Shown here piece by piece: positions 47-16,565 of a DNA stretch of 16,565 nucleotides (within the stretch, counting starts at the first letter, position 1; every line of letters begins with the position of its first letter). The notes under the pieces were generated by a model. That model had not been told where the DNA came from, did not search any database, and worked only from the letters and a program-made list of their open reading frames with translations. The DNA is from a virus (lineage: Duplodnaviria > Heunggongvirae > Uroviricota > Caudoviricetes): the IMG/VR virus record IMGVR_UViG_2667527959_000010, positions 1 to 16,565 of that record; one strand, 5' to 3'. A program made the position numbers and the translations under genes.

Positions 47-709
47 TTGCAACAGTGCCTCGACGGGACCAAATACAGGAATGTCTGGGTTGTTGGTGAT
101 CTGCATGGTTGCTACACCAGACTGATGTCCGAACTCCATCGTGTGGATTTTGACCCGGCGCAGGATTTACTGATATCGGTCGGCGACCTTATCGATCGCG
201 GCACCGAAAATGTTAAATGCCTGGAGCTATTGCAGATGCCATGGTTCAGAGCGGTTATGGGCAACCATGAGCGGCTGATGATTGATGCGTTAAGTCCTGA
301 TGGCAACGTGAATAACTGGCTAATGAATGGCGGTCAATGGTTCTTCATGCTGGACGCTGATCAGGAAATATTAGCCAGGGCGCTGGTGGAGTTGGTAAGA
401 CGACTGCCCTATATCATTGAGTTGAACACCGGGCAAGAAACTATCGTTATAGCTCATGCCGACTATCCGGATAATGAATATCAATTCGGTAAGGAGGTGC
501 CGCTTTTCAATGTTGTCTGGGCGCGCGAGCGTATCAGTGATTCGATGGATGATATTGGTGGCGAAATTTCGGGCGCAGATCGTTTTATCTTTGGTCACAC
601 TCCGGTGAAAAGCCCGAAGACATTCTGGAATCAGCATTATATCGACACTGGTGCCGTATTTTGCGGAAACCTGACATTGATGAAAGTGAAAGGTGATGGT
701 GCAGCATGA
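47..709 (+). CDS. Serine/threonine protein phosphatase, PPP family (lambda phosphatase-like)
   Basis: 220 aa with PPP metallophosphatase motifs GDLHGC, GDLIDRG, GNHE and HADYP, and an N-terminus that aligns with lambda phosphatase as recalled. Only in-frame start after the upstream stop at 26-28 is TTG at 47, with no clear SD, so the start is uncertain. May correspond to a P1 phosphatase gene by position (from memory, unverified). Confidence 0.85.
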
Positions 710-1407
710 AGATTGCTTTAGTTCTTCGCTCTGGTGGTGACTATAACGCTTCCGATGTGCAGTGGCTGGTTAATCAACTGCCAAAAGGCTATGAAATTAT
801 TTGCCTGACAGACCTGAAGCGTTTACATGTGCCAGGCGTTAAGGTTGTCCCATTAATCAACCAGTGGCAAAAGTGCCGTGGCTGGTGGGCGAAAATCGAG
901 TTGTTCCGACCTGATATAACCGATGATCTGTTCTATCTGGATTTGGACACGGTTATTGCCGGTGATATACGCCCAATTCTTGAGAATCCACCAACCAACT
1001 TCACCATGCTTAGGGATTTTTACCATCCACAATATCGTGGCAGCGGTGCTCTGTGGATACCAAATAGTGTAAAAGCGCATATCTGGAGTGCATTCTGGCA
1101 AGATCCGGAAGGTTGGATTGCTCGTTGTGTTACAACTGAGTGCTGGGGGGATCAGGGGTTCTTGCGGAAGGTTATGGGCGATGACACACCAGCATTTCAG
1201 GATCTGTATCCAGGATGGTTTGTAAGTTACAAGGCCGATGTTGTGGAACCTGGTTCAAAATATGCGAGCGCGCGTTACTCCAGGGGGAATGGGACATTAC
1301 CAAAGGACTGCCGAATAATCTTTTTCCACGGCAAACCGCGGCCTCGCGAAGTGTCAGAGGATTGGCTTCCCCTCATTAGCTCGTTTTTTGAGCGAGAATT
1401 AGAATAA
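706..1407 (+). CDS. Hypothetical protein, 233 aa, with DxD-like motif (YLDLDTV)
   Basis: Long ORF whose ATG overlaps the phosphatase stop (ATGA), suggesting translational coupling. N-terminus [11 protein letters not shown] and LDLDT resemble a nucleotide-sugar transferase fold, but this is only a weak motif impression. Confidence 0.6.
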
Positions 1408-1408
1408 T

Positions 1409-1425
1409 ATTGCTCTAATAATTCA
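1409..1425 (+). promoter_or_regulatory. C1 repressor operator-like site (ATTGCTCTAATAATTCA)
   Basis: 14/17 match to the P1 C1 operator consensus ATTGCTCTAATAAATTT, with the first 13 positions identical. Overlaps the stop codon of the upstream ORF. Confidence 0.6.
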
Positions 1426-1436
1426 ATATTTTTAAT

Positions 1437-1464
1437 ACGTGATGTACACTCATCACGTTTTTTA
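1437..1464 (+). terminator. Rho-independent terminator-like hairpin
   Basis: Perfect 8-bp stem ACGTGATG/CATCACGT with 6-nt loop, followed by TTTTT(A)TT. Sits immediately after the phosphatase/233-aa operon. Confidence 0.55.
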
Positions 1465-1474
1465 TTAGAGCAAT
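1458..1474 (-). promoter_or_regulatory. C1 repressor operator-like site, inverted orientation
   Basis: Reverse complement reads ATTGCTCTAATAAAAAA, 14/17 to consensus. Forms an inverted pair with the 1409-1425 site and overlaps the terminator T-tract. Confidence 0.55.
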
Positions 1475-1488
1475 CCATAAGGTGCACT

Positions 1489-1707
1489 ATGTGGCCATTC
1501 CGACGGAAATATCACTACTGGCTGATCGCCTTTGTTACACCGTCCGGCGATATCAGGCATGTCATCACCCGGTATCGCAACAAGAGACTCACCTTAGCCA
1601 GAATTTTACAGGCTGCCATTGGTGAGGGACTGGATACAAATTGCGTAGTCCTTCCACCTTCATACTTAGGAAAAATGACCGAAGCACAAGCTAATACGGA
1701 ACTTTGA
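1489..1707 (+). CDS. Hypothetical protein, 72 aa
   Basis: ATG at 1489 preceded by SD AAGGTG (1479-1484) at 4-nt spacing. Stop TGA at 1705-1707 lies one base before the ATG of the next ORF, suggesting coupling. No recognisable motifs. Confidence 0.55.
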   Translation: MWPFRRKYHYWLIAFVTPSGDIRHVITRYRNKRLTLARILQAAIGEGLDTNCVVLPPSYLGKMTEAQANTEL

Positions 1708-1708
1708 A

Positions 1709-2971
1709 ATGAGCACTTCAGCACAAAACCAATCAATCGAAAATGTATCTATCCCTGACGTCCTGAATGCCGGTATCCCGGCCATTATTCAGAACATCCG
1801 AGCCGCGCAACGCCGCGTTAGTTGTGATGACCTCACAGCACGTTTTTTTGATAATGCGGTTCAGTCAGCTGAGATGCTTCACGCACAGCTTATTGATGTT
1901 TATAACGCAGAAGCTGATAGCCATAACGACCTGGTAGATGCAGCTGAAAATATGCAGTTGGATCTCGGTCTGAAGGGTAAAGAAATTGAAGATCTTCAGC
2001 TGCAAATTGAGCATTTGAAACGCCAGCAACAGGATGCCATCGACGATGCGACGCATGACGCCAACCAGCGTGCTGATAATGCCGAACGTATAAGCATTGA
2101 GTTGGAAACAAAACTCAATGAAATGACCGCTATGGTTGAGCTGCGGAATTCACAGATTTCAACACTAAAATCTCAATATAAAGAGATCATGAAACTTGAT
2201 CCTTTTAACCTTGAGAAACGTTATAACAAAGCCAAAAGCGAGCGCCAGGAACTGCGTAAGCAGGTCGCCGACCTTAACCAACAGCTCAAAAAGGCTATTA
2301 AAGATGCAAGCGAGGCGCGCGTGGCATTTGCTAATAAAAAAGCAGAGGTTACCGAGCTGGTTAATGAAAATGCTAAATTTGCGATGCTCAAGAAGGAAAT
2401 GTATGGCATTACTGAGCGCCGTTTTCCTGCAAGCAAACTCCATCCGACGTTAGGGCAAATCTCATTCTTCCCGCGCCTCCTGGCTTATGGAATCTCATCG
2501 CCTAAAGAGTTCAATAACGAGCGTCCTTATATCGTTTCTAAGCTGGACTTTGCTTATCAGTTCTGCTGTGACATGGGCTATGCCATTGATATCCGTATCA
2601 ACGAATGGTTGATGCCAAACTTCCAGCCGTTGGCCATTTTCCGCGAGTTCCAGCCGGAAGGTTGGGTAGAGTTCTTCCATGAAATGATCTGTAAAGAGAT
2701 GGAAAGCCGCCGCCCGGAACTGGTCCGCCGTGTCGAGTGGGCGCAAGAGGTTATGTTGGCAGATGCAGAGCTACCGTTCGAACCGGAATTCATTGATGAA
2801 CTGGCCAATAAAGGGCTGCATAGCCTATTTGATGTAGTTACCCGCCGTCATGAGCAGTTGGTTGTTGAATTGGGTTTAGAAGAAACTGCGGCAAGAAGAC
2901 TTCTCGATGTTTGCTATGCACGTAGCGATGCATGGGAAAAAGAGAACGGCGGTACTATTTACGTTCGCTGA
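1709..2971 (+). CDS. Hypothetical protein, 420 aa, N-terminal coiled-coil-like region and C-terminal globular domain
   Basis: Long uninterrupted ORF followed by a strong terminator. The N-terminal ~230 aa are rich in E/K/Q/L heptad-like sequence (e.g. LQLQIEHLKRQQQ, ELRKQVADLNQQLKK); the C-terminal ~190 aa are Cys/aromatic-containing with no motif I can assign. Confidence 0.8.
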   Translation: MSTSAQNQSIENVSIPDVLNAGIPAIIQNIRAAQRRVSCDDLTARFFDNAVQSAEMLHAQLIDVYNAEADSHNDLVDAAENMQLDLGLKGKEIEDLQLQIEHLKRQQQDAIDDATHDANQRADNAERISIELETKLNEMTAMVELRNSQISTLKSQYKEIMKLDPFNLEKRYNKAKSERQELRKQVADLNQQLKKAIKDASEARVAFANKKAEVTELVNENAKFAMLKKEMYGITERRFPASKLHPTLGQISFFPRLLAYGISSPKEFNNERPYIVSKLDFAYQFCCDMGYAIDIRINEWLMPNFQPLAIFREFQPEGWVEFFHEMICKEMESRRPELVRRVEWAQEVMLADAELPFEPEFIDELANKGLHSLFDVVTRRHEQLVVELGLEETAARRLLDVCYARSDAWEKENGGTIYVR

Positions 2972-2990
2972 TAGTTACAGTGTCACTTTT

Positions 2991-3025
2991 AATGCTGGTG
3001 GAGTGCGTCCCACCAGCATTTTTTT
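2991..3025 (+). terminator. Rho-independent terminator
   Basis: 11-bp perfect stem AATGCTGGTGG/CCACCAGCATT with 8-nt loop, followed by a T-run at 3021-3025. Lies 20 nt after the stop of the 420-aa ORF. Confidence 0.7.
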
Positions 3026-3044
3026 CGTCCAATGAGGAGGGCAT

Positions 3045-3551
3045 TTGAGTATTTTCAACCAACACGCACACCATGAACGTCCGTATATCGTCATAGTTGA
3101 TATTGATGGAACAATATCAGAGGCAACTGAAGACAGACTGCATTTGCTTCCGCCACCAGGTAAAGGTGCATTAACAAAGGACTGGAACGAGTTTAATCTC
3201 GCCTGTGACACTGATACTCCCATAACTCCAGTTATTGATATTGTGCGCCAGTTATATAACGTTTACACGGTCTGGTTTGTAACCGGGCGCTGTGAGATCG
3301 CAAGGGATAAAACATGAGCCTGGCTGCGAAAGTACGTAACAAACGGGGATGAGCCTTTGCTATCTATGCGTCCTGCCACCGATGACAGAAATGACGGTCC
3401 AGCAAAGATTGATCTCCTTAAGAAAATTGGTCTAAGCAAAATTGCGTTCGCGCTGGAAGATAAGATTGAAGTGGCGCGTGTTTTCAGGCGTCACGGCGTG
3501 CTTACGTTAATGGTCAGGGAGTATGAAAACGCGCTTCTTCATCAGCAATAA
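3045..3551 (+). pseudogene. HAD-superfamily phosphatase (polynucleotide 3'-phosphatase/Pnkp-like domain) interrupted by a single in-frame TGA at 3315-3317
   Basis: ORFs 3045-3317 and 3357-3551 are in the same frame, separated only by one TGA and 13 sense codons. The joined product has HAD motif I IVIVDIDGT, motif II-like WFVTGR, and a C-terminal K/DD region resembling the T4 Pnkp phosphatase domain as recalled. TTG start with strong SD GAGGAGG (3034-3040). Confidence 0.6.
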
Positions 3552-3567
3552 TTGCTCTAATAAATCT
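3551..3567 (+). promoter_or_regulatory. C1 repressor operator (ATTGCTCTAATAAATCT)
   Basis: 16/17 match to the C1 operator consensus. Overlaps the TAA stop of the phosphatase ORF and a TTGATA -35-like hexamer (3567-3572); a GAAAAT -10-like hexamer follows at 3590-3595. Confidence 0.7.
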
Positions 3568-3589
3568 TGATATTTAAAGCAGAGAAGGT

Positions 3590-3623
3590 GAAAATAAAAA
3601 CATGCCGCAAGGGGCGCGGCATG
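3590..3623 (-). terminator. Hairpin with T-tract on the minus strand (possible terminator for leftward transcripts)
   Basis: Perfect 8-bp stem CATGCCGC/GCGGCATG (3601-3623) with 7-nt loop. On the minus strand it is followed by TTTTTATTTT; on the plus strand it is not followed by a U-tract. Confidence 0.45.
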
Positions 3624-3651
3624 TATCAAATCAATCACAGGAGCTGAAGAT

Positions 3652-3738
3652 ATGAACACGGCATTCAAAATCATTATGGCCGCGATCTATTTCTGGCTGT
3701 TCTCTATCACTTTTGGCAGCATTGTCGCGCATGGGTAA
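3652..3738 (+). CDS. Candidate small hydrophobic peptide, 28 aa (MNTAFKIIMAAIYFWLFSITFGSIVAHG)
   Basis: ATG at 3652 with SD AGGAG (3639-3643) at 8-nt spacing. Product is predicted to be a single hydrophobic helix. Too short for the supplied ORF track; sits downstream of a C1-operator-overlapped promoter-like sequence. Confidence 0.35.
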   Translation: MNTAFKIIMAAIYFWLFSITFGSIVAHG

Positions 3739-3772
3739 GGGGAGTATATTAGCCATTTGGAACCCCACGGTC

Positions 3773-3802
3773 TCTTGCGGGTTTAATTAAGAACCCGCAA
3801 GA
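3773..3802. other. Stem-loop at the hsdR 3' end (11-bp stem TCTTGCGGGTT/AACCCGCAAGA, 8-nt loop)
   Basis: Perfect inverted repeat 15 bp from the hsdR stop codon. The A-run lies 3' on the plus strand and the T-run 5' on the minus strand, so it is not a canonical intrinsic terminator in either direction. Confidence 0.4.
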
Positions 3803-3817
3803 AAAATACGAATTGGG

Positions 3818-6800
3818 CTATATTTTTCCGCCTACGCCTTTAAACTTCTCAATAAACGAGACGATTTTCTGGAAAACTGCCTGTTTTTTCGTTTTATATT
3901 GCGGATTCAACGGACTAAGTTTTGGTAATGTTTCGTTTAATTCTGTGCCATTTTCGGTGGCGTATTCGCGTTTTAAAGACGTGCGAATATAGCGTTTTGC
4001 TGCATCTTCATTAAGATTTTCTTCTTTTATCAATGCTTCTGCTTCACGTTGCTGTTCGCGTTGAGCAAACGTAAAGAATGCGTCAATGATGCTGGCTTTG
4101 TCCGGTAAATCATCCAGGTTCGTTTGCTGAATAAAATCGACCACCAGGCCCTCTTTAGCACGGTTCCCTAGGCTTGAACGAATTAAGCGTTTGACCTCTT
4201 CGATCATTTCGCCCTTGCCTTTATTTTGTCTGTTGTGTTCGAAAATCAGTCCAAGGATATAATCCAGGTTTATTTCCTGAGACTTCAGCAAATCGACCTC
4301 AAAAACTACGTCATCCCAGTCAGTGGTTGATTTCTCTTTTTTCTCAGCTTCTTTCTCACGGCGCTGCCAGTCGCGAATATCGTTATAGGCAGAACGATAA
4401 TCCTGAATCTTGCGATCAGCAGGGAGACGAATTGTTTGCAATTCAGCGAGCTTTTCATCATCCACATAATGTTCTGCTTTGAATTTTTCTACTGCAACAG
4501 GATCGCTAAGATCGATTTGTTGCAGGGCTTTCAGCGTGGCAAATTCATCATAGTTTTGCAGGATGTTCTCGGTACGCAGGTATTCACCAAACAGTTTAAC
4601 GAAGTCTTTCTTCTCTTTTTCACTTTCAATACTGGTAGGGTCAGGGAACCGTTGTTCCAGTTCTGAAACTACTGTCATGAAGCCGCGTTTAGCTTCACCA
4701 GTGGCAGCATCAGTAAAGCCTTCCATATACTCTGCATAACTCTTTTCTAAAACCACATTTTTGGTATTTTTGTCACCAAACAGCGTTATGGCATCAATAG
4801 TTGAGCGTTCCAGATCCCGGAAAGTGACGATATTACCGAAGGTTTTAGTTGCATCATAAATACGGTTGGTGCGGGAAAATGCCTGCATCAAGCCGTGAAA
4901 ACGCAGGTTTTTATCGACGAATAGCGTGTTCAATATTGGAGCATCGAAGCCAGTTAAAAACATCCCCACGACAATTAACAGATCGATATCCTGATTTTTA
5001 ACCCGCTGGGCTAAATCACGATAGTAGTTCTGAAAACCGTTACTGTCGGTGCTGAAGTTAGTTTTAAAATAGCTGTTATACTCACGAATTGCAGCATCAA
5101 GAAACTCTTTAGCACTGCTGTCCATTGCGCTGGTATCAAAAGTTTCATCGGAAATTTCACCAATGGCATTTTGTTCTTCATTGGCAGCAAAGGAGAAGAT
5201 TGTCGCAATATGCAGCGGTTTATAGGTGGCCGATTTATTAGCTGCTTCCTCTTGTAACCGTTTAAACGTCGCGTAATAGGCTTTTGCAGCATCCACGCTG
5301 CTCACTGCCAACATAGCATTAAAACCTTTTGAGCCAGGGAAGGTACGGTGGGTTTTCTGGCGGAAATTATTCAGAATATATTGCGTGATTTCCTGAATAC
5401 GCATGGGATGAAGAAACGCCTGCTGATTTTCAGCCGCACTCAGTTTTTTCTCGTCAGTTTCTGTCTCTAAAGACTTAAACTGTGGCCGCACATCGTTGTA
5501 GTCCACCTTGAATTTGAGCACTTTTTCGTCACGAATCGCATCGGTAATTACATACGAATGCAATTCACGACCAAATACGCTGGCGGTTGTTTCTGAGCCT
5601 AAGGCGTTTTCCGGGAAAATAGGGGTGCCGGTAAAACCAAACTGATAATAGCGTTTGAATTTCTTCTTCAGGTTTTTCTGCGCTTCTCCAAACTGGCTGC
5701 GGTGGCATTCATCAAATATAAACACCACTTGCTGATTATATACAGGCAGGTCGCTTTCTGCTTTCATCAGGTTATTGAGTTTCTGAATAGTAGTGACGAT
5801 AATTTTGTTATCGTCCTTATCCAGATTTCGTTTAAGGCCTGCGGTATTTTCCGAGCCGTTGACGCTGTCTGGCGAAAAACGCTGATATTCCTTCATGGTC
5901 TGGTAATCGAGGTCTTTCCTGTCGACCACGAAGAAGACTTTATCAATAAAGTCCAGCTCTGTTGCCAGACGCGCGGCTTTAAAGCTGGTGAGGGTTTTAC
6001 CAGAACCGGTAGTGTGCCAGATATACCCACCGCTTTCCGGTTTTGACCAGTTCTTCGCTGTAAAGGAGCTCTTAATTTTCCACAGAATGCGCTCGGTGGC
6101 AGCAATCTGGTACGGTCGCATCACCAGTAGCGTCTGACTGCTGTCAAAAACGCTGTAGTTCACCAGAACATTAAGCAGAGTATGTTTCTGGAAAAAGGTA
6201 GCGGTAAAATCTTTGAGGTCTTTAATCAGCGTGTTGTCTGATTTCGCCCAGTTCATGGTGAAGTCAAAACTGTTTTTATCGCGCTTTGTTGTGTTGGCAA
6301 AATAACGGGTATCGGTGCCGTTAGAAATGACAAACAGTTGCAGATACTTAAACAGGGAATTTTCGCTGTTAAAACTCTCTTTACTGTAACGATGTATCTG
6401 GTTGAAAGCCTCACGAATCGCCACGCCGCGCTTTTTCAGTTCGATTTGTACCAGTGGTAAGCCATTAACCAGGATCGTGACGTCATAACGGTTAGCATGA
6501 GAACCCGTCTGTTCAAACTGCTGGATAATCTGCACCTTATTGCGCATGAGATTCTTTTTATCTATCAAATAGATGTTCTCAAGTCGCTCGTCATCAAAAA
6601 TAAAGTCGCAAATATAGTCGATATGGATTTTACGGGTCTTATCCAGAATGCCATCGCTCGGGTTGTCCAGATACTGCTCCGTGAAACGCCGCCACTCGCT
6701 GTCATTAAACACCACACCATTGAGGCTCTGAAGCTGTTCCCGAACATTGGACAGCATAGCCGACTGAGATTTTACGGATATAAATTCATAGCCCTGATTC

Positions 6801-6934
6801 CGCAGGTCCTGAATCAGTTCACGTTCCAGGTCCGATTCGCTCTGGTAGCTGTCGCCTGTTTGCTCAGCTTTGATGTACTTATCAAGGACGATAAAGTTAT
6901 TGGATTCAGCAATGGTGTGTGTTTGATGAGTCAT
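3818..6934 (-). CDS. hsdR: Type I restriction enzyme R subunit (HsdR), type IC-like
   Basis: 1038 aa. Walker A TGSGKT, DEAH-box FDECHR, and an N-terminal PD-(D/E)xK-like nuclease motif (D...IELKK). Length matches EcoR124I HsdR as recalled. SD AAGGA upstream of the ATG at 6934. Confidence 0.95.
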
Positions 6935-7055
6935 AGCGCATCCTTTGTGCCGCCTGGCAAGGGCCGGAAGGGCGTTAAGAGTGACTTCCGGCGCGTAAAA
7001 AATAGTCTATATACAGACCGGGTGTTAAGGTGGCCCGGTCGGTAGCAATGGTCAA

Positions 7056-8312
7056 TTAATTACTGACAGTTTCAGGTGTTGGGAAACTGAACAGTAAATC
7101 ACGATAGTACTCGTATTGTTTCTGGCGCAACTCGATTTCACGCGGAAGACCTTCGGTGATGGAGTTGGTCAGGGTGTCGAATTTATCGAGCAGAGCAGAT
7201 ATTCGCTCTTGTTTCTGTTTATCAGGCAATGGCACTGGTAATGTTTTTATAATATCTGCATTCAAGTTACTGACCGACCCGCTATTGATTTTACTTTCCC
7301 AATAATTTTTCACCTTTTTTGATGAAAGATAGTGATACAGATAATCAGCATTTAATTTTTCACCAAAATTGCTGATTGATGCCCATCCATCATGGATAGC
7401 TCCGGTTATCCTTAAAATATATGGTCTGCCAAAGCTCATAGAGTTAGAAATGACGAAATCACCGGGGTTCAAGATTCGCGATTTTTGGGCACCCTCTGCA
7501 GTTATTTTTTGTAAGGTTTTGTCAATGTATTTAGAGCCGGGTATAGTATCTCCGATTTTAATCCATGGGATACCATTTCCTTGTTCAGTAAGATAATTAA
7601 CAATTGGTCTGGGGGATGCCCCTCGTTGTATTTTGGCTACTTCTCCCAATGCCTTCCACTCAACCTCACCCTCATCAAAACTCAGCAATTGGTCGCGATA
7701 GTAGTTGTACTGTTTTTTACGCATGTTAAGCTCAGCGGTAAGCTCAGCGGTAAGTGCAGTAAATTTATCCAGAATCCGAACGATTTCAGACTGGATGGCA
7801 AGGGATTTTTCCGGATTATCCGGGCAAGGGATTGGGATGAGTAGTTTTGACATCAATGCATTTGAGCTTAGGTTCGGTTGTGCTCCGCCCCCGGCGAGGA
7901 TATAAATAGTCTCTGTATTTAACAATAAAAAATGGTATAAATAATTATTGTTTAGAATATTTTCTTTGGGTATGAATTTCCCAACCCGTTGGTTAAGATA
8001 ACATTTTGTTCCTTTTTTATAAATTCCTACCTTTCCTGTAGTGGCACCTGACATTGCAATCAATATATTTCCCATAGATACCTCAAAGGAGGATAAATCT
8101 TCCTTGTAATCATTTAGTGAAAAGTATTTCACCTCATCTAAGTCAACATTAAATCCATCTATATTTGTGATTCTGACTATCGGTAACCCAGTTTCTTTAA
8201 ATAAGCTGCTTTTAAATGCAAATCCATTTTTAAAATCACAAACATCCTTCAAGGGTTTCCACTCAACCTCAACCCCATCCAGCAATTTTTCCAGATAACT
8301 TAACTCGCTCAT
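7056..8312 (-). CDS. hsdS: Type I restriction-modification specificity subunit (HsdS), type IC-like
   Basis: 418 aa with two variable target-recognition regions separated by the conserved central region ...[33 protein letters not shown], and a C-terminal conserved repeat ...[36 protein letters not shown], as in the EcoR124I/EcoDXXI family. Confidence 0.95.
7730..7753 (-). repeat. Tandem 12-bp repeat (2 copies) encoding TAEL-TAEL in the HsdS central conserved region
   Basis: GCTCAGCGGTAA x2 on the plus strand, which is ACCGCTGAGCTT x2 in the coding sense. A degenerate partial third unit follows. Confidence 0.8.
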
Positions 8313-9871
8313 TTTTGCACCTCGCAGCCTTCAATTTCAGCCACAATTGCATCAATATCTTTACGCAACTGGTCGATTTTGCTGACCGTGGTTTTCAGCT
8401 CAGCATTCAGCTCACCGATATCGATAATTTCGCGGTTATCTTTCGCTTCCACATAGCTGCTCACCGACAGGTTATAGTCATTCGCGACAACGGCTTCAAA
8501 CGCGACAGATTTTGCCAGATGAGCAACATCTTCCTTGCTGGCAAATACCTGCATAATTTTTTCTATATGGGCATCGGTCAGAATGTTGTTGTTAGTCTCT
8601 TTTTTGAACAGTTCGCTGGCATCAATAAACTGAACTTTGGTATCCGTTTTATGTTTAGACAGCACCAGAATATTTACGGCAATGGTGGTGCCAAAGAACA
8701 GGTTCGGTGCGAGTGAAATCACGGTTTCGACATAGTTATTGTCGACCAGATACTGACGGATTTTCTGCTCCGCGCCGCCACGGTAAAAAATACCCGGGAA
8801 GCAGACAATCGCGGCGCGACCTTTGGCCGAAAGATAGTTCAGCGCATGTAGTACAAACGCAAAGTCAGCTTTGGATTTGGGGGCCAGAACGCCAGCCGGG
8901 GCAAAACGTTCATCGTTAATCAGCGTCGGGTCATCGCTGCCAATCCATTTCACCGAATACGGTGGGTTAGATACGATGGCGTCAAACGGTTTTTCATCTC
9001 TGAAGTGCGGCTCAGTCAGCGTATTGCCCAGCTTGATATCAAACTTGTCGTAGTTGATATTGTGCAAAAACATGTTCATACGCGCCAGGTTATAGGTCGT
9101 ATGGTTGATTTCCTGACCGAAAAAGCCTTCTTCGATGATATGGTTATCAAACTGTTTTTTCGCCTGCAACAACAGTGAGCCGGAACCCGCTGCCGGGTCG
9201 TAGATTTTGTTAACGCTGGTCTGCCCGTGCATAGCCAGTTGTGCAATCAGCTTGGAGACGTGCTGCGGTGTAAAGAACTCACCGCCTGACTTACCGGCAT
9301 TTGCCGCATAGTTAGAAATCAGGAACTCATAGGCATCACCGAACAGGTCAATCTGATGTTCGTTGAAGTCACCAAGTTTTAACCCTTCAACCCCTTTCAG
9401 AACCGCAGCCAGGCGGGCATTTTTATCTTTAACGGTGTTACCCAGGCGGTTACTGGTGGTATCGAAATCAGCAAACAAACCTTTGATGTCAGCTTCTGAA
9501 GGATAACCGTAAGCAGAACTTTCGATAGCAACGAAGATGCTGTTTAAATCTGCATTCAGTCTGTCATTAGTATTTGCTTTCGCAGCTACGTTGCAGAAAA
9601 GCTGACTGGGGTAGATGAAGTAGCCTTTAGTTTTGATGGCATCGTCTTTAATGTCATCAGTAATTACGCTGTCATCCAGTTTCGCATAACAGATACTGTC
9701 ATCACCGGCTTCAATATAGCTGGAAAAATTTTCGCTGATAAAACGGTAGAAAAGTGCGCCCAGAACGTATTGCTTAAAATCCCATCCATCGACCGAACCC
9801 CTGACATCGTTAGCAATTTGCCAGATTTGACGATGAAGCTCTGCACGTTGTTGAATACTTGTCATTTTCAT
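8309..9871 (-). CDS. hsdM: Type I restriction-modification N6-adenine DNA methyltransferase subunit (HsdM)
   Basis: 520 aa. AdoMet-binding motif [10 protein letters not shown] and catalytic motif NPPY ([10 protein letters not shown]). Its stop overlaps the hsdS start by 4 bp. N-terminus [13 protein letters not shown] matches my recollection of EcoR124I HsdM. Confidence 0.95.
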
Positions 9872-10010
9872 CCACTTATTTCAGGCTTATGTAATTGGCG
9901 GTGATTCTACAGCAACTTGGATGCTTTAGCAGTTCGGACATTAGGCTACGAATGACCTGCCTAGAGGTTTGTTAAGCCGCAAAGTGCTGGTGCTTTATGC
10001 CTGTGAAGTT

Positions 10011-10040
10011 TATAATTGTGTACACATAACGAGTACACGA
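10011..10040 (+). promoter_or_regulatory. phd-doc promoter -10 (TATAAT) and Phd/Doc operator palindromes
   Basis: TATAAT at 10011-10016 is followed by the perfect palindrome GTGTACAC (10018-10025) and a second near-copy GAGTACAC (10031-10038), just upstream of SD GAGGTG and the phd ATG. Consistent with the autoregulated phd-doc operator described for P1. Confidence 0.6.
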
Positions 10041-10047
10041 GGTGTTT

Positions 10048-10269
10048 ATGCAATCCATTAACTTCCGTACCGCGCGTGGCAACCTTTCTGAAGTGCTCAA
10101 CAATGTTGAAGCCGGGGAAGAGGTTGAAATCACCCGCAGAGGCCGTGAGCCAGCAGTAATTGTCAGCAAGGCTACTTTCGAAGCCTACAAAAAAGCGGCG
10201 CTGGATGCTGAATTTGCATCCCTGTTTGACACCCTGGACTCCACCAACAAGGAACTGGTTAACCGATAA
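10048..10269 (+). CDS. phd: Phd antitoxin (prevent host death)
   Basis: 73 aa, [41 protein letters not shown]..., matching P1 Phd as recalled. SD GAGGTG 4 nt upstream. The ORF track's 10042 GTG start adds two residues; ATG 10048 is preferred. Confidence 0.95.
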
Positions 10270-10649
10270 TGAGGCATATATCACCGGAAGAACTTATTGC
10301 GCTTCATGATGCGAATATAAACCGCTACGGCGGCCTGCCGGGCATGTCAGATCCGGGTAGGGCAGAGGCCATTATCGGGAGAGTTCAGGCCAGAGTTGCC
10401 TACGAAGAGATCACCGACCTTTTCGAAGTCTCCGCCACCTACCTGGTGGCTACAGCGAGAGGGCATATATTCAATGATGCCAATAAGCGTACCGCGCTAA
10501 ACAGTGCGCTGTTATTTCTACGCCGTAACGGGGTGCAGGTATTTGATTCACCTGAACTGGCAGACCTTACCGTAGGGGCTGCGACCGGAGAGATATCTGT
10601 ATCTTCTGTCGCCGACACGTTACGTAGATTGTATGGTTCTGCGGAGTAG
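10269..10649 (+). CDS. doc: Doc toxin (death on curing), Fic-family kinase
   Basis: 126 aa with Fic motif [11 protein letters not shown]. Start overlaps the phd stop (TAATG). Matches P1 Doc as recalled. Confidence 0.95.
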
Positions 10650-10653
10650 ATTA

Positions 10654-10833
10654 ATGGCACGCAAATACAACAAATTGTCCCGTGAAGCGTTAAAGATGCT
10701 TCTTGATGGCGTGAGTCGCCGCAAGGTAAAGCAATACCTGGTTGGTAAGCAAATTGGAGTCAGGACCGCTATTGCTGTGTTATGCCGTCAGGAAATGGTT
10801 GCGCTTAAACAGAGAATGCCGGGCAGCAGATAA
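10654..10833 (+). CDS. Small basic protein downstream of doc (pdcA-like by position), 59 aa
   Basis: ATG at 10654 with SD GGAG about 9 nt upstream. An alternative in-frame ATG at 10633 lies inside the doc 3' end without an SD. K/R-rich sequence; named only by position after doc. Confidence 0.5.
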   Translation: MARKYNKLSREALKMLLDGVSRRKVKQYLVGKQIGVRTAIAVLCRQEMVALKQRMPGSR

Positions 10834-10860
10834 AGCCCAATCAGTGATGAAAGGTGTGAT

Positions 10861-11904
10861 GTGAAAGCCGTAATTACTCCCTTTGTACAGAAAGAGCTTG
10901 GCCTCGCCACGTTCAAAGTGGATCAGGAGGTCAGAAAGCTGGTGGAGGCTGGCCGTAAATTTATTATGGAGCCGGTGCCGCGTGAGTTAATCGAGCACAT
11001 GGAAGACGGCCTCGTTGTTACCGAGCAAACCATGGCAACAAATGAGGCGTTGCAGCCGTTTTTTAACAGCGATGAACTGTTTCGCCGTATTGGTGGAATT
11101 GACGCGCTGGTGGCGTGGTTGCGTAGGAAAGAGGGTCAATGCCAGGCCGCAGATCGTAGTTGGTGTGACAACCATATTGTCCACGCTGAACGAGACAATA
11201 GCGCGGTGTTGTTGTGCTGGCATCACGATAACCATTATCGGATGCGTGGTTTTAATGAGCTGAAAGAAACGCTGCACAATAATCGCGTTAACTGGATACT
11301 GGATGTCGCCCGTCAGGAAATGGGCCTTTCAAATAGCCATGATTTAAGTATTCAGGAGCTGTGCTGGTGGGCTTTCATGCGCAACATGATGCACCTGATG
11401 CCGGAAGAAGTCTGCCGCATATCAATAAATAAGATGAAGGCTACTCCGCAGGATAGCGGACCTCTGAAAGAGGCGGATATTCGCCCGTATGACGATCGCG
11501 CTACAGCATATGTGCAGATGATGGAAGAACGCGCCGCGCCGATGCGTGCAAAAGTATGCCCTGTGGATGTTGACTCCGACCCTGGCATGGCGCATTTCAA
11601 AATACCAAAACTGCAATCGCTAAAATTACCTGAGTACATGGACTTTGTTGCTTCCCGTCCATGCTGTGGGTGTGGAGCTGCGGGAGCTGGCGCTCACATT
11701 ACGCCTTATATCGTTCGTCATAGTCGATTATGCGCGCATGACATTTACGCAATTCCTCTGTGCCAGTCATGCCAGCGTGATATTGAGCGTGACCGCGATA
11801 ATTGGGAGAAGACGCACGGTAGGTTGGCGATGCATCAACGATTGTTCTTTGATTACGCGCTTGGAGTGGGCGTTATCACAAGTCATTCGTCGAGTGTTAG
11901 ATAA
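10861..11904 (+). CDS. Hypothetical protein, 347 aa, with C-terminal Cys/His cluster (pdcB-like by position)
   Basis: GTG start at 10861 with SD AAGGTG (10851-10856). C-terminal region PCCGCG...H...H..LCAHD...LCQSCQ suggests a metal-binding module. Function unknown. Confidence 0.75.
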
Positions 11905-11905
11905 A

Positions 11906-11922
11906 ATTGCTCTAATGTATTG
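11906..11922 (+). promoter_or_regulatory. C1 operator-like site upstream of lpa (ATTGCTCTAATGTATTG)
   Basis: 13/17 match to the C1 operator consensus, first 11 positions identical. Overlaps a TTGCTA -35-like hexamer (11920-11925) spaced 16 bp from a TATTAT -10-like hexamer (11942-11947). Confidence 0.6.
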
Positions 11923-11992
11923 CTATTTCTTTAATCGAGGGTATTATATTCCACGTTGATTAGTTGACATGGGCTAATCAGTAGGTGACAGG

Positions 11993-12445
11993 ATGTTACT
12001 TAACTGGCAGGGACGCCACTTCATGGAAATAAATCACTCACGAATAACATCGTACGAGATTGCGGATTACATGATCCGCACTAAATCTCTTCTATCAGCG
12101 AAAGAACTCGCAGCAATTCTTGAAAAGGAATACCCGCATCTGGATGTCGATAAGCGCGATGTTTATCTGCGCTTAAAGGCTATCGCTGTGTCTAAGTATT
12201 CGTCTGTTTTGATAGATGACAGTACACGCCCACGTAGATTTCAGATCCACTCTCTGAATCCTGAATTCTTTCGCCGTAGCCGCGCTCCGCGCCGGTTTGA
12301 TGAAAAACTCCAGAACGAACTCTATATGACGCAGGACGAAAAGGAACGCCGGGAGCACCAGCCTTGGGTAATGGCGCGTCAACTTTTCAATAAGGTGGCC
12401 CGTCAGCACCGTCATTACGGTAATGCCACATCCGCACGTATCTGA
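11993..12445 (+). CDS. lpa: Late promoter activator Lpa (P1 gene 10-like)
   Basis: 150-aa basic protein in the conserved P1 position between doc/pdc and pacA, preceded by a C1 operator. Assignment is by synteny and size, not by a recalled sequence. An internal ATG at 12023 is an alternative start. Confidence 0.75.
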   Translation: MLLNWQGRHFMEINHSRITSYEIADYMIRTKSLLSAKELAAILEKEYPHLDVDKRDVYLRLKAIAVSKYSSVLIDDSTRPRRFQIHSLNPEFFRRSRAPRRFDEKLQNELYMTQDEKERREHQPWVMARQLFNKVARQHRHYGNATSARI

Positions 12446-12455
12446 TTGATTGCTT

Positions 12456-12474
12456 GCCCGTTCCGGGCCTTTTG
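12456..12474 (+). terminator. Short GC hairpin plus T-run (weak terminator or attenuator candidate) between lpa and pacA
   Basis: GCCCG-TTC-CGGGC followed by CTTTTG, 11 nt after the lpa stop. Confidence 0.35.
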
Positions 12475-12530
12475 ACATGTGACTTTCGTTACCCTCGCGT
12501 CAAAAAGAGTTTTTACGAAAGGAAGCATAA

Positions 12531-13724
12531 GTGACCTGGGACGATCACAAGAAGAATTTTGCTCGCCTGGCGCGAGATGGTGGTTACACCATCGCACAGT
12601 ATGCCGCCGAGTTTAATCTTAACCCTAATACCGCACGTCGTTATCTCCGTGCATTCAAAGAAGACACCGGAACAGCGGACAGCCGTAAGCCAAATAAGCC
12701 TGTCAGGAAACCACTAAAAAGCATGATCATTGATCACGCTAATGATCAACGTGCAGGTGATTACGTTGTGGCTGAAATGGCTGAAAAACAAAAAGTTAAT
12801 GCTGTTGTTAGTGCCGCAGTCGAGAACGCTAAGCGCCAAAATAAGCGCATAAATGATCGTTCTGATGATCATGACGTGATCACCCGCGCCCACCGTACCT
12901 TACGTGATCGCCTGGAACGCGACACCCTGGATGATGATGGTGAACGCTTTGAATTCGAAGCTGGCGATTACCTGATAGATAACGTTGAAGCGCGGAAGGC
13001 CGCGCGCGCTATGTTGCGTCGGTCCGGGGCCGATGTTCTGGAAACCACTCTTCTGGAAAAGTCTCTTTCTCATCTCCTTATGCTGGAGAACGCCAGGGAT
13101 ACGTGTATTCGCCTGGTGCAGGAAATGCGCGATCAGCAAAAAGACGATGATGAAGGTACTCCGCCTGAATACCGTATCGCGAGCATGCTAAACAGCTGTT
13201 CCGCGCAGATAAGCAGCCTGATCAACACCATTTACAGCATCCGGAATAACTATCGAAAAGAAAGCCGGGAGGCGGAAAAGCACGCTTTATCTATGGGGCA
13301 AGCTGGCATTGTTAAGCTGGCATACGAACGAAAGCGTGAAAATAACTGGTCAGTGCTGGAAGCGGCTGAATTCATCGAGGCGCATGGAGGAAAAGTGCCG
13401 CCCCTGATGCTGGAGCAAATCAAAGCCGATCTGCGTGCTCCTAAGACCAATACCGATGATGAGGAAAACCAAACAGCATCTGGCGCTCCATCACTTGAAG
13501 ATCTGGATAAAATCGCGCGAGAACGGGCCGCCAGCCGCCGCGCTGATGCGGCATTGTGGATTGAGCATCGTAGAGAAGAAATTGCCGATATCGTCGATAC
13601 AGGTGGTTATGGTGATGTCGATGCGGAAGGCATATCAAACGAAGCATGGCTTGAACAGGATCTGGACGAAGACGAGGAGGAAGACGAAGAAGTTACCCGC
13701 AAACTGTACGGGGATGATGATTAA
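12531..13724 (+). CDS. pacA: Terminase small / pac-recognition subunit PacA
   Basis: 397 aa, GTG start with SD GGAAG. N-terminus [28 protein letters not shown] matches P1 PacA as recalled. Acidic C-terminal tail. Contains the pac site. Confidence 0.9.
12724..12882 (+). other. pac packaging site: clustered TGATCA/G hexamers carrying Dam GATC sites, inside pacA
   Basis: Left cluster TGATCA at 12724, 12731 and 12743, plus a degenerate TGATTA at about 12758. Right cluster TGATCG at 12854, TGATCA at 12866 and 12877. Architecture matches the P1 pac description (4 left + 3 right hexamers). Confidence 0.75.
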
Positions 13725-15208
13725 TGGCCAGAAGTTGCGTAACGGACCCACGTTGGCGCGAGCTGGTGGCGCTATATCGTTATGACTGGATTGCGGCCGC
13801 TGATGTGTTGTTTGGGAAGACACCAACCTGGCAGCAGGATGAGATCATTGAGTCCACGCAGCAGGACGGCAGTTGGACAAGTGTGACCTCCGGCCATGGT
13901 ACTGGTAAATCGGATATGACGAGTATCATTGCAATACTCTTCATCATGTTTTTCCCCGGCGCTCGCGTCATTCTGGTCGCTAACAAAAGACAGCAAGTCC
14001 TTGATGGTATTTTCAAATACATAAAGAGCAATTGGGCTACTGCTGTTAGCAGATTCCCGTGGTTGTCGAAGTATTTCATTCTTACAGAAACGTCTTTTTT
14101 TGAGGTGACTGGCAAGGGTGTTTGGACAATATTGATAAAGTCCTGTCGCCCCGGAAATGAGGAGGCGTTGGCTGGTGAACACGCCGATCATCTCTTGTAT
14201 ATCATCGACGAAGCGTCGGGTGTGAGTGATAAAGCATTCAGTGTGATAACAGGTGCGCTGACCGGTAAGGATAACCGTATTCTGCTTCTTTCCCAGCCTA
14301 CGCGACCTTCAGGCTATTTCTACGATTCACACCACAGACTAGCTATTCGCCCGGGAAATCCTGATGGATTGTTTACTGCGATAATACTGAATAGTGAAGA
14401 ATCTCCGCTTGTAGATGCAAAATTTATACGAGCAAAACTTGCGGAGTATGGCGGTCGTGATAACCCCATGTACATGATCAAAGTACGTGGTGAATTTCCC
14501 AAATCTCAAGATGGCTTTCTTCTTGGTCGTGATGAGGTTGAGCGGGCGACGCGGCGAAAGGTCAAGATTGCCAAAGGATGGGGCTGGGTTGCATGTGTTG
14601 ACGTTGCTGGTGGCACAGGACGAGATAAGTCCGTTATTAATATCATGATGGTGTCCGGCCAGCGAAATAAACGCCGTGTAATCAACTATCGTATGCTGGA
14701 ATACACAGACGTTACAGAAACGCAGTTAGCCGCCAAGATTTTCGCAGAATGTAACCCAGAACGGTTCCCGAACATAACCATAGCTATTGATGGCGATGGC
14801 TTGGGGAAATCGACGGCTGATCTAATGTACGAACGCTATGGCATTACCGTCCAGCGTATCCGCTGGGGTAAAAAGATGCACAGCCGTGAAGATAAAAGCC
14901 TTTATTTCGATATGCGCGCTTTCGCGAATATTCAGGCGGCAGAAGCTGTAAAATCAGGGCGTATGAGGCTTGATAAGGGGGCTGCGACTATAGAGGAAGC
15001 ATCAAAGATACCGGTAGGGATAAATTCCGCAGGTCAATGGAAGGTGATGTCAAAGGAAGATATGAAGAAAAAACTCAACCTGCACTCACCGGACCATTGG
15101 GATACATATTGTTTCGCTATGTTGGCGAACTATGTTCCCCAAGATGAAGTGCTTAGCGTCGAAGACGAAGCGCAGGTTGATGAAGCTCTGGCATGGCTTA
15201 ATGAATAA
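13724..15208 (+). CDS. pacB: Terminase large subunit PacB
   Basis: 494 aa. Start overlaps the pacA stop (TAATG). Walker A-like GHGTGKS and Walker B-like [10 protein letters not shown]. Confidence 0.9.
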
Positions 15209-15232
15209 CTCATTAACCATGCCGGATGGAAA

Positions 15233-16084
15233 CTATTGCGCGCTTTCGGGGTTGTCGTTTACTGGCTGCCCCTTCTTAGTTTTGCGGCTGCGCGTAACTG
15301 ATGCGGCTGATTTGACCTTTTTCTCTTCGCGAGTGATGGCAATTTGTTTTTTTACATTTTCAATATCTGCCAGGCGATATATTTTTGCTTGCGGCCAGCG
15401 GTCGCAGATGATCGGTTCTATGGAGTCATAAAGGCTAAATTTTGCTTTTTCGAATTCACCGTTGATGATAATTCCATCACGGAGAGTTTCATCGCAGATA
15501 AACACGCCACACAGTGGCACATGGTAACTCACTGATTTACCATCATTGTAGTTAGGGCTACTGGAAATGTAGTGGACGCGCAGCATTGTTTCGCTAAAGC
15601 CGTGTACGCGCATACGGAATTTTTCATCCTCTGGGTACTGCTTCATTAGCTCTTTTGTTGCTTCCAGGTTCTCTATGTATTTCGCACTGTGCTCATTGAT
15701 CCCCGCGCTTTTTTGGATGCGAATGTCCTTATCAATCAGATGAATAATGCGGCCAGCGGTCATGTTGACGCTGTTCACAGCTTCTGTCTGATAAGTTGTA
15801 ACCTTGCGAACACCGCGAAGGATGTTAGGCACTGGATATAAAATAGTCTTTGGGATATTGAGGTCTGGGTACTGTTCCAGTTCCCGCGCCATTAAAGTCC
15901 ATTTATCAATTTCAGCCTGAATGCTGTCAGTTTCTTTGAACGGTAGAACGACAACCGGGCGTACAGGACGACCGTCGCTGGCTGTATCAACGTGTTGGGC
16001 GCGTGCAACAGCTTTTTTTAGAAAGAGATCCCTGAAGCTGACGAACTCCTGGTACAGTTGTTCGCCGTAGACATAATTTATCAT
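15233..16084 (-). CDS. c1: C1 repressor of lysis (primary immunity repressor)
   Basis: 283 aa, MINYVYGEQLYQEFVSFRDLFLKKAVARAQHVD..., matching P1 C1 as recalled. Convergent with pacB as in P1. Confidence 0.95.
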   Translation of the reverse strand: MINYVYGEQLYQEFVSFRDLFLKKAVARAQHVDTASDGRPVRPVVVLPFKETDSIQAEIDKWTLMARELEQYPDLNIPKTILYPVPNILRGVRKVTTYQTEAVNSVNMTAGRIIHLIDKDIRIQKSAGINEHSAKYIENLEATKELMKQYPEDEKFRMRVHGFSETMLRVHYISSSPNYNDGKSVSYHVPLCGVFICDETLRDGIIINGEFEKAKFSLYDSIEPIICDRWPQAKIYRLADIENVKKQIAITREEKKVKSAASVTRSRKTKKGQPVNDNPESAQ

Positions 16085-16178
16085 TGATCCTCCTCCAGAA
16101 TTGACATGGTCAATAACGCCCGGCTGAGAAAACCGGTCATTACTGACCTATATTATAGAGGGATCAAACAAAAATAAT

Positions 16179-16195
16179 AGATTTATTAGTGCATT
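16179..16195 (-). promoter_or_regulatory. C1 operator-like site between coi and c1 (Op99-like)
   Basis: Plus strand AGATTTATTAGTGCATT is 14/17 to the reverse-complement consensus AAATTTATTAGAGCAAT. Position corresponds to the autoregulatory operators upstream of c1 in P1. Confidence 0.45.
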
Positions 16196-16404: not shown

Positions 16405-16565
16405 AATTATGCCTCACTGTATTGACAACACAGAGCCTGAAGCTCTGACCTACTGTTTCACCCATGATCCATGCTGGGGTAATCTAACAACATTGCGCTG
16501 TGTGTAAGGGAAGGTGCGAACAAGTTCCTGATATGAGATCATCATATTCATCCGGAGCGCATCCC

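Follow-up and report, generated by a model that had tools for sequence, protein, structure and literature searches.

A type IC (EcoR124-family) hsdM-hsdS-hsdR cassette beside phd-doc in a P1-like IncY phage-plasmid

The window analysed here, the whole 16,565-nucleotide stretch of viral record IMGVR_UViG_2667527959_000010, carries three hsd genes between P1-homologous flanks. We are highly confident that they form a complete type IC (EcoR124-family) restriction-modification (R-M) system, predicted to be very probably active and carried as cargo of a P1-like IncY phage-plasmid. The arrangement is real and was correctly interpreted in the first-pass annotation, and it is already known: a type IC cassette beside phd-doc is a configuration well documented in the P1 family, of which the window is a further example. 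The useful additions are quantitative and concern the abundance of the arrangement in plasmids and Escherichia coli genomes.

Results

Three intact hsd genes of the EcoR124 family

The hsdR stop codon and the hsdM start codon mark the exact ends of the interval 3818-9871, which is filled by three intact minus-strand genes in the order hsdM-hsdS-hsdR. As in the type IC layout, hsdR stands apart downstream, and a divergent toxin-antitoxin operon lies next to hsdM:

8309-9871, minus strand: hsdM, N6-adenine methyltransferase subunit, 520 aa (ORF, profile matches)
7056-8312, minus strand: hsdS, specificity subunit, 418 aa (end-to-end alignment with EcoR124 HsdS)
3818-6934, minus strand: hsdR, motor and nuclease subunit, 1038 aa (ORF, profile matches)
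10048-10649, plus strand: phd-doc toxin-antitoxin operon, divergent from hsdM (profile matches, P1 annotation and alignment)

In profile searches, all three ORFs scored far above the curated cut-offs of type I R-M models. HsdM matched TIGR00497 (651.6 bits) and PF02384, HsdS contains two PF01420 domains, and HsdR matched TIGR00348 (766.7 bits) and ends in PF12008, EcoR124_C, covered over profile positions 1-260 of 260 (E = 1.2e-71); PADLOC assigned the classes MTase_I, Specificity_I and REase_I. With three full-length ORFs in exactly this interval, the earlier claim of a complete type I R-M locus at 3818-9871 holds. The G+C content of the cassette is ~0.42-0.46, against 0.47-0.52 in the backbone.

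The type IC assignment, which the first reading had based on the sizes of HsdR and HsdM and on the conserved regions and TAEL repeats of HsdS, is borne out by sequence comparison with family prototypes. HsdM is identical to EcoR124II M (PDB 7bst_D) at 515 of 520 residues (99.0%) and scores 1154 bits against it, with only 65 bits against EcoKI M; its motifs DPAAGSGS and NPPY are intact. HsdR aligns to EcoR124I HsdR (PDB 2w00_A) over 1038/1038 residues with 2283 bits, and the ~968 residues shown in the alignment contain 12 substitutions (~99% identity), located outside the nuclease and DEAD-box motifs; the nuclease region, TGSGKT and FDECH are all intact. With R and M at about 99% identity, subunit complementation and antibody cross-reaction with EcoR124I, by which the family was first defined, are very likely. 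Membership in another type I family (IA, IB, ID, IE), or in an EcoprrI-like locus with an embedded anticodon nuclease, is so improbable as to be negligible. Generic Pfam and TIGR models alone cannot separate the type I families, and no positive support for such an identity was found. The HsdM scores, however, separate EcoR124II M from EcoKI M widely, HsdR combines the EcoR124_C domain with near-identity to EcoR124I R, and the 4-nt overlap of hsdM and hsdS, in which the hsdM stop shares ATGA with the hsdS start, leaves prrC no space. On the M and R scores and this overlap we rejected both a non-IC and an EcoprrI-like identity, and the grouping with IA, IB or ID that had been named as a possible refutation was looked at and is not found.

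A search for prrC within the hsd operon returned no extra ORF, and the antisense ORFs at 6497-7045, 5702-6046 and 8315-8716 have no Pfam match. The same is true of the ORFs at 9961-10284 (minus strand) and 3813-3992 and of a 28-aa ORF, and an Rfam scan of the interval at the gathering score found no RNA family.

Sharp junctions and a replaced block of nine P1 genes

Aligned to phage P1, the flanks show 95.6% identity over window positions 60-3742 and 98.4%, ungapped, over 9972-16508; nothing between 3742 and 9972 aligns to P1. The slot lies between pap/PpmgT and phd-doc and is delimited as follows:

3742/3743, unstranded: left synteny breakpoint, corresponding to P1 84482/84483 (alignment)
9971/9972, unstranded: right synteny breakpoint, corresponding to P1 87969/87970 (alignment)
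3743-3817, unstranded: cassette-specific 3' flank, 75 bp, not in P1, with an 11-bp inverted repeat (3773-3783 and 3792-3802)
9872-9971, unstranded: cassette-specific 5' flank upstream of hsdM, 100 bp, not in P1, presumed hsdM/hsdS promoter region

The left breakpoint follows the stop codon of a short conserved ORF by 4 nt and precedes the P1 pmgT ATG by 5 nt; the right one is at the humD stop codon, with the Pphd -35 element beginning 16 nt further downstream. The window thus has 6229 bp where P1 has 3487 bp (84483-87969), which agrees with the earlier reading of a replacement rather than a simple insertion. Nine P1 genes are gone: hot, lxr and humD, whose absence had been claimed, and six that had not been listed (pmgT, pmgU, pmgV, upfM, upfN and upfO). 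P1 itself, which might have carried hsd genes at the same position, was looked at and does not.

Both breakpoints fall inside the ranges first proposed (3568-3817 and 9872-10010). The accompanying statement that this window fixes the junctions adds nothing, as the P1 GenBank record already had both: its misc_features covering 84263-84482 and 87969-88647 refer to the hsd flanks of EcoDXXI and R124/3, in line with the earlier remark that the class is not new. Type IC hsd loci are reportedly flanked by P1-homologous DNA, an observation said to go back to Tyndall and colleagues in 1997. In that description P1 homology ends at 84482 and restarts at ~87969; here window position 3742 equals P1 84482 and 9972 equals 87970.

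The breakpoints are sharp and located at gene boundaries. Terminal inverted repeats and target-site duplications were looked for at both cassette ends and none was found, nor is there a recombinase gene, as expected of a transposon or integron, within 3400-10300; a transposon-type cassette was therefore rejected. Because gene-boundary breakpoints come here without a transposon signature, we infer that cargo modules may be exchanged in the slot through recombination in the conserved flanks.

Reassorted target recognition domains in HsdS

HsdS has the type IC layout of N-terminal conserved region, TRD1, central conserved region, TRD2 and C-terminal conserved region, consistent with the rule that type IC HsdS starts and ends in the conserved D2 region and has a central region with TAEL repeats (Loenen et al, 2013). 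Its N-terminal, central and C-terminal regions are identical to those of EcoR124 HsdS, the sole type IC S subunit in PDB for TRD comparison, and both TRDs are unrelated:

7839-8256, minus strand: TRD1 coding DNA, variable module (~aa 19-158), delimited by nucleotide homology breaks
7728-7751, minus strand: two tandem 12-bp repeats (ACCGCTGAGCTT twice) encoding TAEL-TAEL in the central conserved region (sequence)
7191-7635, minus strand: TRD2 coding DNA, variable module (~aa 226-374), delimited by nucleotide homology breaks

The TRD1 boundaries coincide with homology breaks against the hsdS genes of phage 673R5, phage phi456 and an IncF plasmid, and TRD1 DNA is low in G+C (0.35-0.40). There are 68 homologs in which TRD1 is shared at 97-100% identity and TRD2 is different, and 32 in which TRD2 is shared at 99-100% identity and TRD1 is different. 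Reassortment of whole TRDs diversifies the specificity of hsdS.

Since neither TRD is related to the EcoR124I TRDs (GAA / RTCG), the recognition sequence must differ. TAEL repeats set the spacer length in type IC enzymes, with two repeats in EcoR124I (N6) and three in EcoR124II, EcoDXXI and EcoprrI (N7) (Loenen et al, 2013). TAELTAEL occupies aa 188-195 of the present HsdS, so that an N6 spacer is predicted for a 3+4 site, assuming half-site lengths like those of EcoR124I. The pairing of this TRD1 with this TRD2 is rare (3/5,426 complete E. coli genomes) and may represent an unrecorded specificity. The exact HsdS is present in NCBI (P0001, P0002) and has no enzyme name in any source; a literature search returned no methylome or plating results for strain AW1.7 or for the HsdS accessions.

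Transcription signals around the cassette

Type IC loci have a two-promoter organisation. Signals that bear on the expression of the present cassette were located within and to the left of it:

6935-7055, minus strand: hsdS-hsdR intergenic region, 121 bp, with promoter-like TTAACA-18-TATTTT (7028 to 6999)
3553-3597, plus strand: retained P1 C1 operator OpmgT (ATTGCTCTAATAAATCT) and PpmgT promoters (P1 annotation transferred via alignment)
3600-3624, minus strand: terminator-like hairpin, a 10-bp stem followed by TTTTATTTT (terminator scan; hsdR-sense, leftward)

The intergenic region presumably holds a separate hsdR promoter (Pres), to judge by its TTAACA-18-TATTTT element, a pattern match at 9/12 consensus positions. 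Upstream of hsdM (9872-9971), a simple promoter scan found no sigma-70 site of at least 9/12, and a -10-like hexamer, TAGAAT, is visible there. At the other end, the hairpin at 3600-3624 is located inside P1-homologous DNA, 194 nt beyond the hsdR stop. The inverted repeat at 3773-3802 is not followed by a T-run on either strand and the terminator scan was negative in both orientations; a canonical intrinsic terminator directly after hsdR was accordingly rejected, the sole site in the right orientation being 3624-3600.

OpmgT is intact at 3553-3569, with a promoter-like match at 3567-3595 in the scan, and PpmgT/OpmgT now point at the hsdR 3' end; the terminator scan called nothing on the plus strand from 3597 to 4434. 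It is conceivable, and we consider it very unlikely, that induced PpmgT would read through the 28-codon ORF and then antisense into hsdR, damping restriction in lytic growth and leaving it on in the lysogen; if this were true, the phage immunity switch and a type I R-M system would be coupled.

Convergent PpmgT transcription also enters a broader alternative to an active system, namely that the cassette is present and restriction-silent, either methylation-only or unexpressed, for instance owing to substitutions in HsdR. The 12 differences from EcoR124I, the lack of a strong promoter match at hsdM and the open path from PpmgT into hsdR would fit this, as does the frequent damage in relatives: hsdR of plasmid ETEC1731 contains IS1203, hsdS of phi456 contains an IS5-family element, and the genes of 673R5 are fragmented. 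The three ORFs are, however, full length with unchanged catalytic motifs, the HsdR substitutions spare the nuclease and DEAD-box motifs, and an identical cassette is kept in plasmid pAW1.7_1. We therefore regard silence as unlikely and retain the prediction of an active enzyme.

Prevalence and the polarity of the replacement

Of the two junctions, one occurs in 537 and the other in 719 PLSDB plasmids; among 5,426 complete E. coli genomes the corresponding counts are 557 and 704 (~10-13%). At least 80% of window 3400-10300 is present in 488 plasmids. At this slot the hsd arrangement is far more numerous than the reference P1 block, the P1 segment being complete in only 4 PLSDB plasmids, and it also moves with phd-doc onto conjugative plasmids.

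These counts bear on the first-pass description of a P1 backbone interrupted by hsd genes. That the cassette sits between P1-homologous flanks stands; the polarity implied by the word is questionable, as the hsd arrangement is far commoner than that of reference P1. Under a reversed polarity, the hsd arrangement would be the common or older state of the slot and the pmgT-humD block an alternative cargo. Besides the imbalance in PLSDB, this would account for an hsdR-sense hairpin within "P1" DNA at a place where reference P1 has no nearby leftward gene, and plasmid ETEC1731, with hsd plus hot-lxr-humD, provides an intermediate. Yet frequency among the clinical and farm isolates in databases does not equal ancestry, and the plasmid counts include many IncF derivatives that are not P1. 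Furthermore, the lower G+C content of the cassette fits acquired DNA, and a Klebsiella phage has a diverged cassette without P1 flanks. Weighing both sides, we consider the reversed order possible and rather doubtful, and keep the reading of the cassette as cargo of a P1-like element.

Discussion

By analogy with the EcoR124I literature, HsdS and two HsdM would form the methyltransferase, with the half-sites of the bipartite target read by TRD1 and TRD2 and both target adenines methylated. The two TAEL repeats would impose the EcoR124I geometry with a methylation interval of 7 nt, and with HsdR added the complex would become an endonuclease that uses ATP to translocate DNA and cleaves incoming DNA lacking the modification.

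One IncF plasmid carries the equivalent of window 3659-11138, trimmed by IS elements, with cassette and phd-doc together. Such an IS-trimmed block on conjugative IncF plasmids might be the origin of the P1-homologous flanks of R124 and EcoDXXI. IS26 and an IS5-family element border the window itself; for this reason its source may be only part of a P1 element and not a complete prophage, and a phage-borne role of this particular copy is uncertain. The prevalence figures should help in modelling what limits the transfer of phages and plasmids in E. coli, and they matter when P1 serves as annotation reference for phage-plasmids; they are no discovery about the window itself.

Comparison with known systems

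One of the nearest relatives is pAW1.7_1 (NZ_CP072540.1), an IncY P1-like plasmid of E. coli AW1.7, which is 99.97% identical over window 60-16508 and 100% identical over the cassette and its junctions, with HsdR, S and M annotated by NCBI. The two differ at the window edges, where IS26 abuts a truncated ppp and the end of an IS5-family element interrupts imcA; neither is found in pAW1.7_1.

The type IC prototypes EcoR124I and EcoR124II (plasmids R124 and R124/3) share the order hsdM-hsdS-hsdR, HsdM (99.0%), HsdR (~99%) and the conserved regions of HsdS, and EcoR124I also has two TAEL repeats and unrelated TRDs. R124/3 has the same left P1 junction, P1 84399-84482 being annotated as homologous downstream of its hsdR. 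The EcoR124 plasmids are IncF and conjugative, whereas the present replicon is IncY and P1-like with long P1 flanks. For EcoDXXI both P1 boundaries are identical, the homologous stretches being 84263-84482 on the downstream side of hsd and 87969-88647 (phd-doc) on its upstream side, but its HsdS has three TAEL repeats, against two in the window, and recognises TCAN7RTTC (Loenen et al, 2013).

Among isolated P1-like phages, phi456 and vB_EcoM-673R5 carry the hsd cassette at the same two junctions with different TRDs. In 673R5, hsdR and hsdM are annotated as fragments, and in phi456 hsdS is split by an IS5-family element; because phi456 forms plaques with the same junctions, the lost P1 genes are dispensable for virion production. 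In pSvP1, a type I R-M system has been described as "substituting pmg genes" (PMC6906374). Region 8 (pmgT to humD) of P1-like phage-plasmids is highly variable (PMC9603915), and neither paper uses the term type IC for the system. This "variable region 8" is exactly the block replaced here, with no difference of substance.

Window and closest relatives

Judged by its sequence, the window comes from a P1-family phage-plasmid. In a megablast search of phage records, P1 (NC_005856) aligned with positions 60-3742 at 95.6% and with 9972-16508 at 98.4% ungapped. The closest deposited sequence is pAW1.7_1 (NZ_CP072540.1), an IncY plasmid of E. coli AW1.7, which is 99.97% identical over 60-16508 (4 mismatches, 1 gap), rising to 100% within 3400-10300. 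Both ends are insertion sequence termini, which gives the window the look of a contig or segment with an insertion sequence at either border:

1-59, IS26 end (...TTTGCAACAGTGCC), adjoining and truncating the 5' end of ppp
16508-16565, IS5-family end (GGAAGGTGCGAACAAG...), inserted in imcA at the right end

By comparison with P1, ppp would start at about position 17; pAW1.7_1 has an intact ppp and carries the same IS26 ~1.45 kb farther upstream, whereas the ppp copy of the window is truncated. Separately, pacB is a single intact 494-codon ORF (13724-15208), but the pAW1.7_1 annotation (L004 18325-19808) divides it in two. This split fits the sole gap between the two sequences, one of which could contain a frameshift or sequencing error.

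A complete type IC hsd cassette

The interval 3818-9871, proposed in the first-pass annotation as a complete type I restriction-modification locus, has as its exact limits the stop codon of one ORF (1038 codons) and the start codon of another (520 codons), with a 418-codon ORF between them:

9871-8309, minus strand, hsdM
8312-7056, minus strand, hsdS
6934-3818, minus strand, hsdR

Besides these ORF limits, profile matches and the PADLOC labels of the three products (MTase_I, Specificity_I and REase_I) uphold the proposal. HsdM matches TIGR00497 (651.6 bits, cut-off 242.75), PF02384 and PF12161; PF01420 occurs twice in HsdS; HsdR matches TIGR00348 (766.7 bits), PF04313, PF18766, PF22679 and PF12008 ("EcoR124_C"). 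All three genes and their motifs are intact. hsdM and hsdS overlap by ATGA, and the 121-bp gap between hsdS and hsdR carries a promoter-like TTAACA-18-TATTTT. No additional gene or known RNA is hidden inside the cassette interval. A prrC-type gene was ruled out, as the locus has no room for one.

For family assignment, the Hsd proteins were compared with solved structures. HsdR aligns across all 1038 residues with EcoR124I HsdR (2w00_A, 2283 bits), showing 12 substitutions within the ~968 residues displayed and the same nuclease, TGSGKT and FDECH motifs. HsdM is identical to EcoR124II HsdM (7bst_D) at 515 of 520 positions, whereas it scores only 65 bits against M of the type IA enzyme EcoKI. 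HsdS can be aligned along its whole length with the S subunit of EcoR124, and its N-terminal, central and C-terminal conserved regions, including TAELTAEL, are identical, but both target-recognition domains (TRDs) are unrelated. By every type IC criterion that sequence can test, the cassette belongs to this family, and the HsdR and EcoKI M scores bear out the earlier assignment.

Junctions and the replaced P1 block

P1 homology stops at window position 3742 (P1 84482), 5 nt ahead of the pmgT ATG and 4 nt beyond the end of a small conserved ORF. It restarts at 9972 (P1 87970), a point that falls on the humD stop codon, 16 nt ahead of the -35 element of Pphd. Both breakpoints fall inside the intervals first suggested for them. 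The non-P1 segment 3743-9971 (6229 bp) takes the place of P1 84483-87969 (3487 bp), which makes the event a replacement and not an insertion, as had been claimed; P1 itself does not have these genes here, with no megablast alignment to the window between 3742 and 9972. The cassette ends show neither target-site duplication nor terminal inverted repeats. Both breakpoints are gene boundaries, which fits an exchange of modules via recombination in the conserved flanks.

The left flank retains several P1 features:

3553-3597, plus strand, C1 operator OpmgT and PpmgT promoters, now directed into the hsdR 3' end
3600-3624, minus strand, strong terminator-like hairpin in leftward orientation within P1-homologous DNA
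3652-3738, plus strand, unannotated 28-codon hydrophobic ORF (MNTAFKIIMAAIYFWLFSITFGSIVAHG) with a Shine-Dalgarno-like AGGAG

The small ORF stops 4 nt short of the left breakpoint, is kept in P1 directly upstream of pmgT and has no Pfam match. The hairpin is the only terminator-like site correctly oriented for hsdR, and reference P1 has no leftward gene near it. Induction-dependent antisense control of hsdR from OpmgT/PpmgT would be a speculative and quite improbable reading of this layout. Farther left, the homolog of pap (putative acid phosphatase, 3044-3551) has an in-frame nonsense codon at P1 Arg91 (RDKTRAW to RDKT*AW) and is probably a pseudogene; PGAP gives no CDS at this position in pAW1.7_1.

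Prevalence of the arrangement

Junctions were searched with 200-bp queries, at least 80% covered, in PLSDB plasmids and 5,426 complete E. coli genomes.

Occurrence of the hsd junctions and of the P1-type segment
Left junction: 537 PLSDB plasmids; 557 of 5,426 genomes
Right junction: 719 PLSDB plasmids; 704 of 5,426 genomes
Full pmgT-humD segment (query P1 84483-87969, L001 3981-7467; at least 80% covered): 4 of 72,556 PLSDB plasmids

Nearly all genome matches lie on plasmids, and the hsd arrangement is widespread at this slot. Fragments of pmgT-humD, mainly the humD and hot end, occur in 723 PLSDB plasmids. Since the hsd junctions are far commoner than the full segment, reference P1 is the unusual member, atypical of its own family at the slot. 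This rarity raises the question whether hsd interrupted a P1 backbone at all.

Variants in other elements

In the plaque-forming phage phi456, which makes myovirus particles, the cassette occupies the same two junctions, so the nine P1 genes pmgT-humD are dispensable for virion production. phi456 shares the IS5-family insertion in imcA and has a second copy that splits hsdS (IS5-family stretches at L003 9456-9516 and 15196-15253). Its Orf78 and Orf90, annotated "putative baseplate hub protein", are located in these insertions and, from size and position, look like mis-annotated IS5-family transposase.

The right junction is not universal, since the ETEC1731 plasmid, with the same hsdS allele, retains hot-lxr-humD between hsdM and phd. 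There (L005 10883-13674) the cassette end is followed by ~375 bp of other DNA with a 74-codon ORF, then diverged upfM-hot (82% to P1), lxr-humD and phd; its hsdR is broken by IS1203, whereas that of the window is intact.

The conjugative IncF plasmid pEC00617_2 carries the equivalent of window 3659-11138. It begins with an 84-bp P1 flank that IS1 cuts on the left, continues through hsdR-S-M, phd, doc and pdcA, and ends in a truncated pdcB, beyond which lies IS5. With this flank, which is exactly the R124/3 homology in the P1 annotation, and the IS cuts, conjugative plasmids seem to owe their type IC module to the P1-family arrangement, trimmed by IS elements and with phd-doc moving along. The unannotated Klebsiella phage vB_KpnS_p4727 (L007 3993-9934) has a diverged type IC cassette; gene order and sizes are as in the window, but just the coding part matches (3826-9868, 81-83% nucleotide identity), without P1 flanks or phd-doc, which delimits the core cassette. 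The cassette query likewise has matches in about 300 Klebsiella plasmids.

Specificity and TRD reassortment

Among the best 120 HsdS homologs listed, only P0001 and P0002 have both TRDs together; 68 combine TRD1 (at least 85% identity) with an unrelated TRD2, and 32 keep TRD2 with an unrelated TRD1. At the DNA level the complete hsdS allele occurs in only 3 of 5,426 complete E. coli genomes (two AW1.7 assemblies and ETEC1731). This pattern is the modular reassortment that is classical for type IC S subunits. Five homologs (P0053, P0069, P0076, P0098 and P0105) have a TRD1 88-100% identical and an unrelated central conserved region (30-35%), which suggests that the same TRD1 moved into the scaffold of a different type I family.

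Two TAEL repeats accompany an N6 spacer in EcoR124I and three an N7 spacer in EcoR124II, EcoDXXI and EcoprrI (Loenen et al, 2013). The window encodes two (12-bp repeats, 7728-7751), and its enzyme would by analogy have EcoR124I geometry with different half-sites. Following the EcoR124I literature, M2S1 would methylate a bipartite site, its spacing set by the two repeats, and R2M2S1 would translocate and cleave unmodified DNA; the system would defend a lysogen or a plasmid-bearing host from foreign DNA and modify its own element's DNA. The sources searched give no enzyme name for this HsdS, and the literature search found neither an AW1.7 methylome nor mention of the HsdS accessions.

Comparison with known systems

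P1 homology at type IC hsd flanks was reportedly described by Tyndall and colleagues in 1997, in a paper that reviews cite. The P1 GenBank record marks 84263-84482 as 96% identical to DNA downstream of the EcoDXXI hsd locus, 84399-84482 as 98% identical to DNA downstream of R124/3 hsdR, and 87969-88647 as 98% identical to DNA upstream of EcoDXXI hsd; these boundaries are the same two breakpoints as in the window. In pSvP1 a type I system is described as "substituting pmg genes" (Venturini et al, 2019), pmgT-humD is the highly variable "region 8" in a survey of 77 P1-like phage-plasmids (PMC9603915), and restriction-modification systems are among the functions swapped between phage-plasmids and plasmids (Pfeifer and Rocha, 2024). 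The first-pass interpretation was correct in family, junctions and replacement, and also in holding that the class is not new: the hsd replacement is real but already known, a textbook case, its sequence deposited and annotated, its junction published in 1997 and its site a recognized hot spot.
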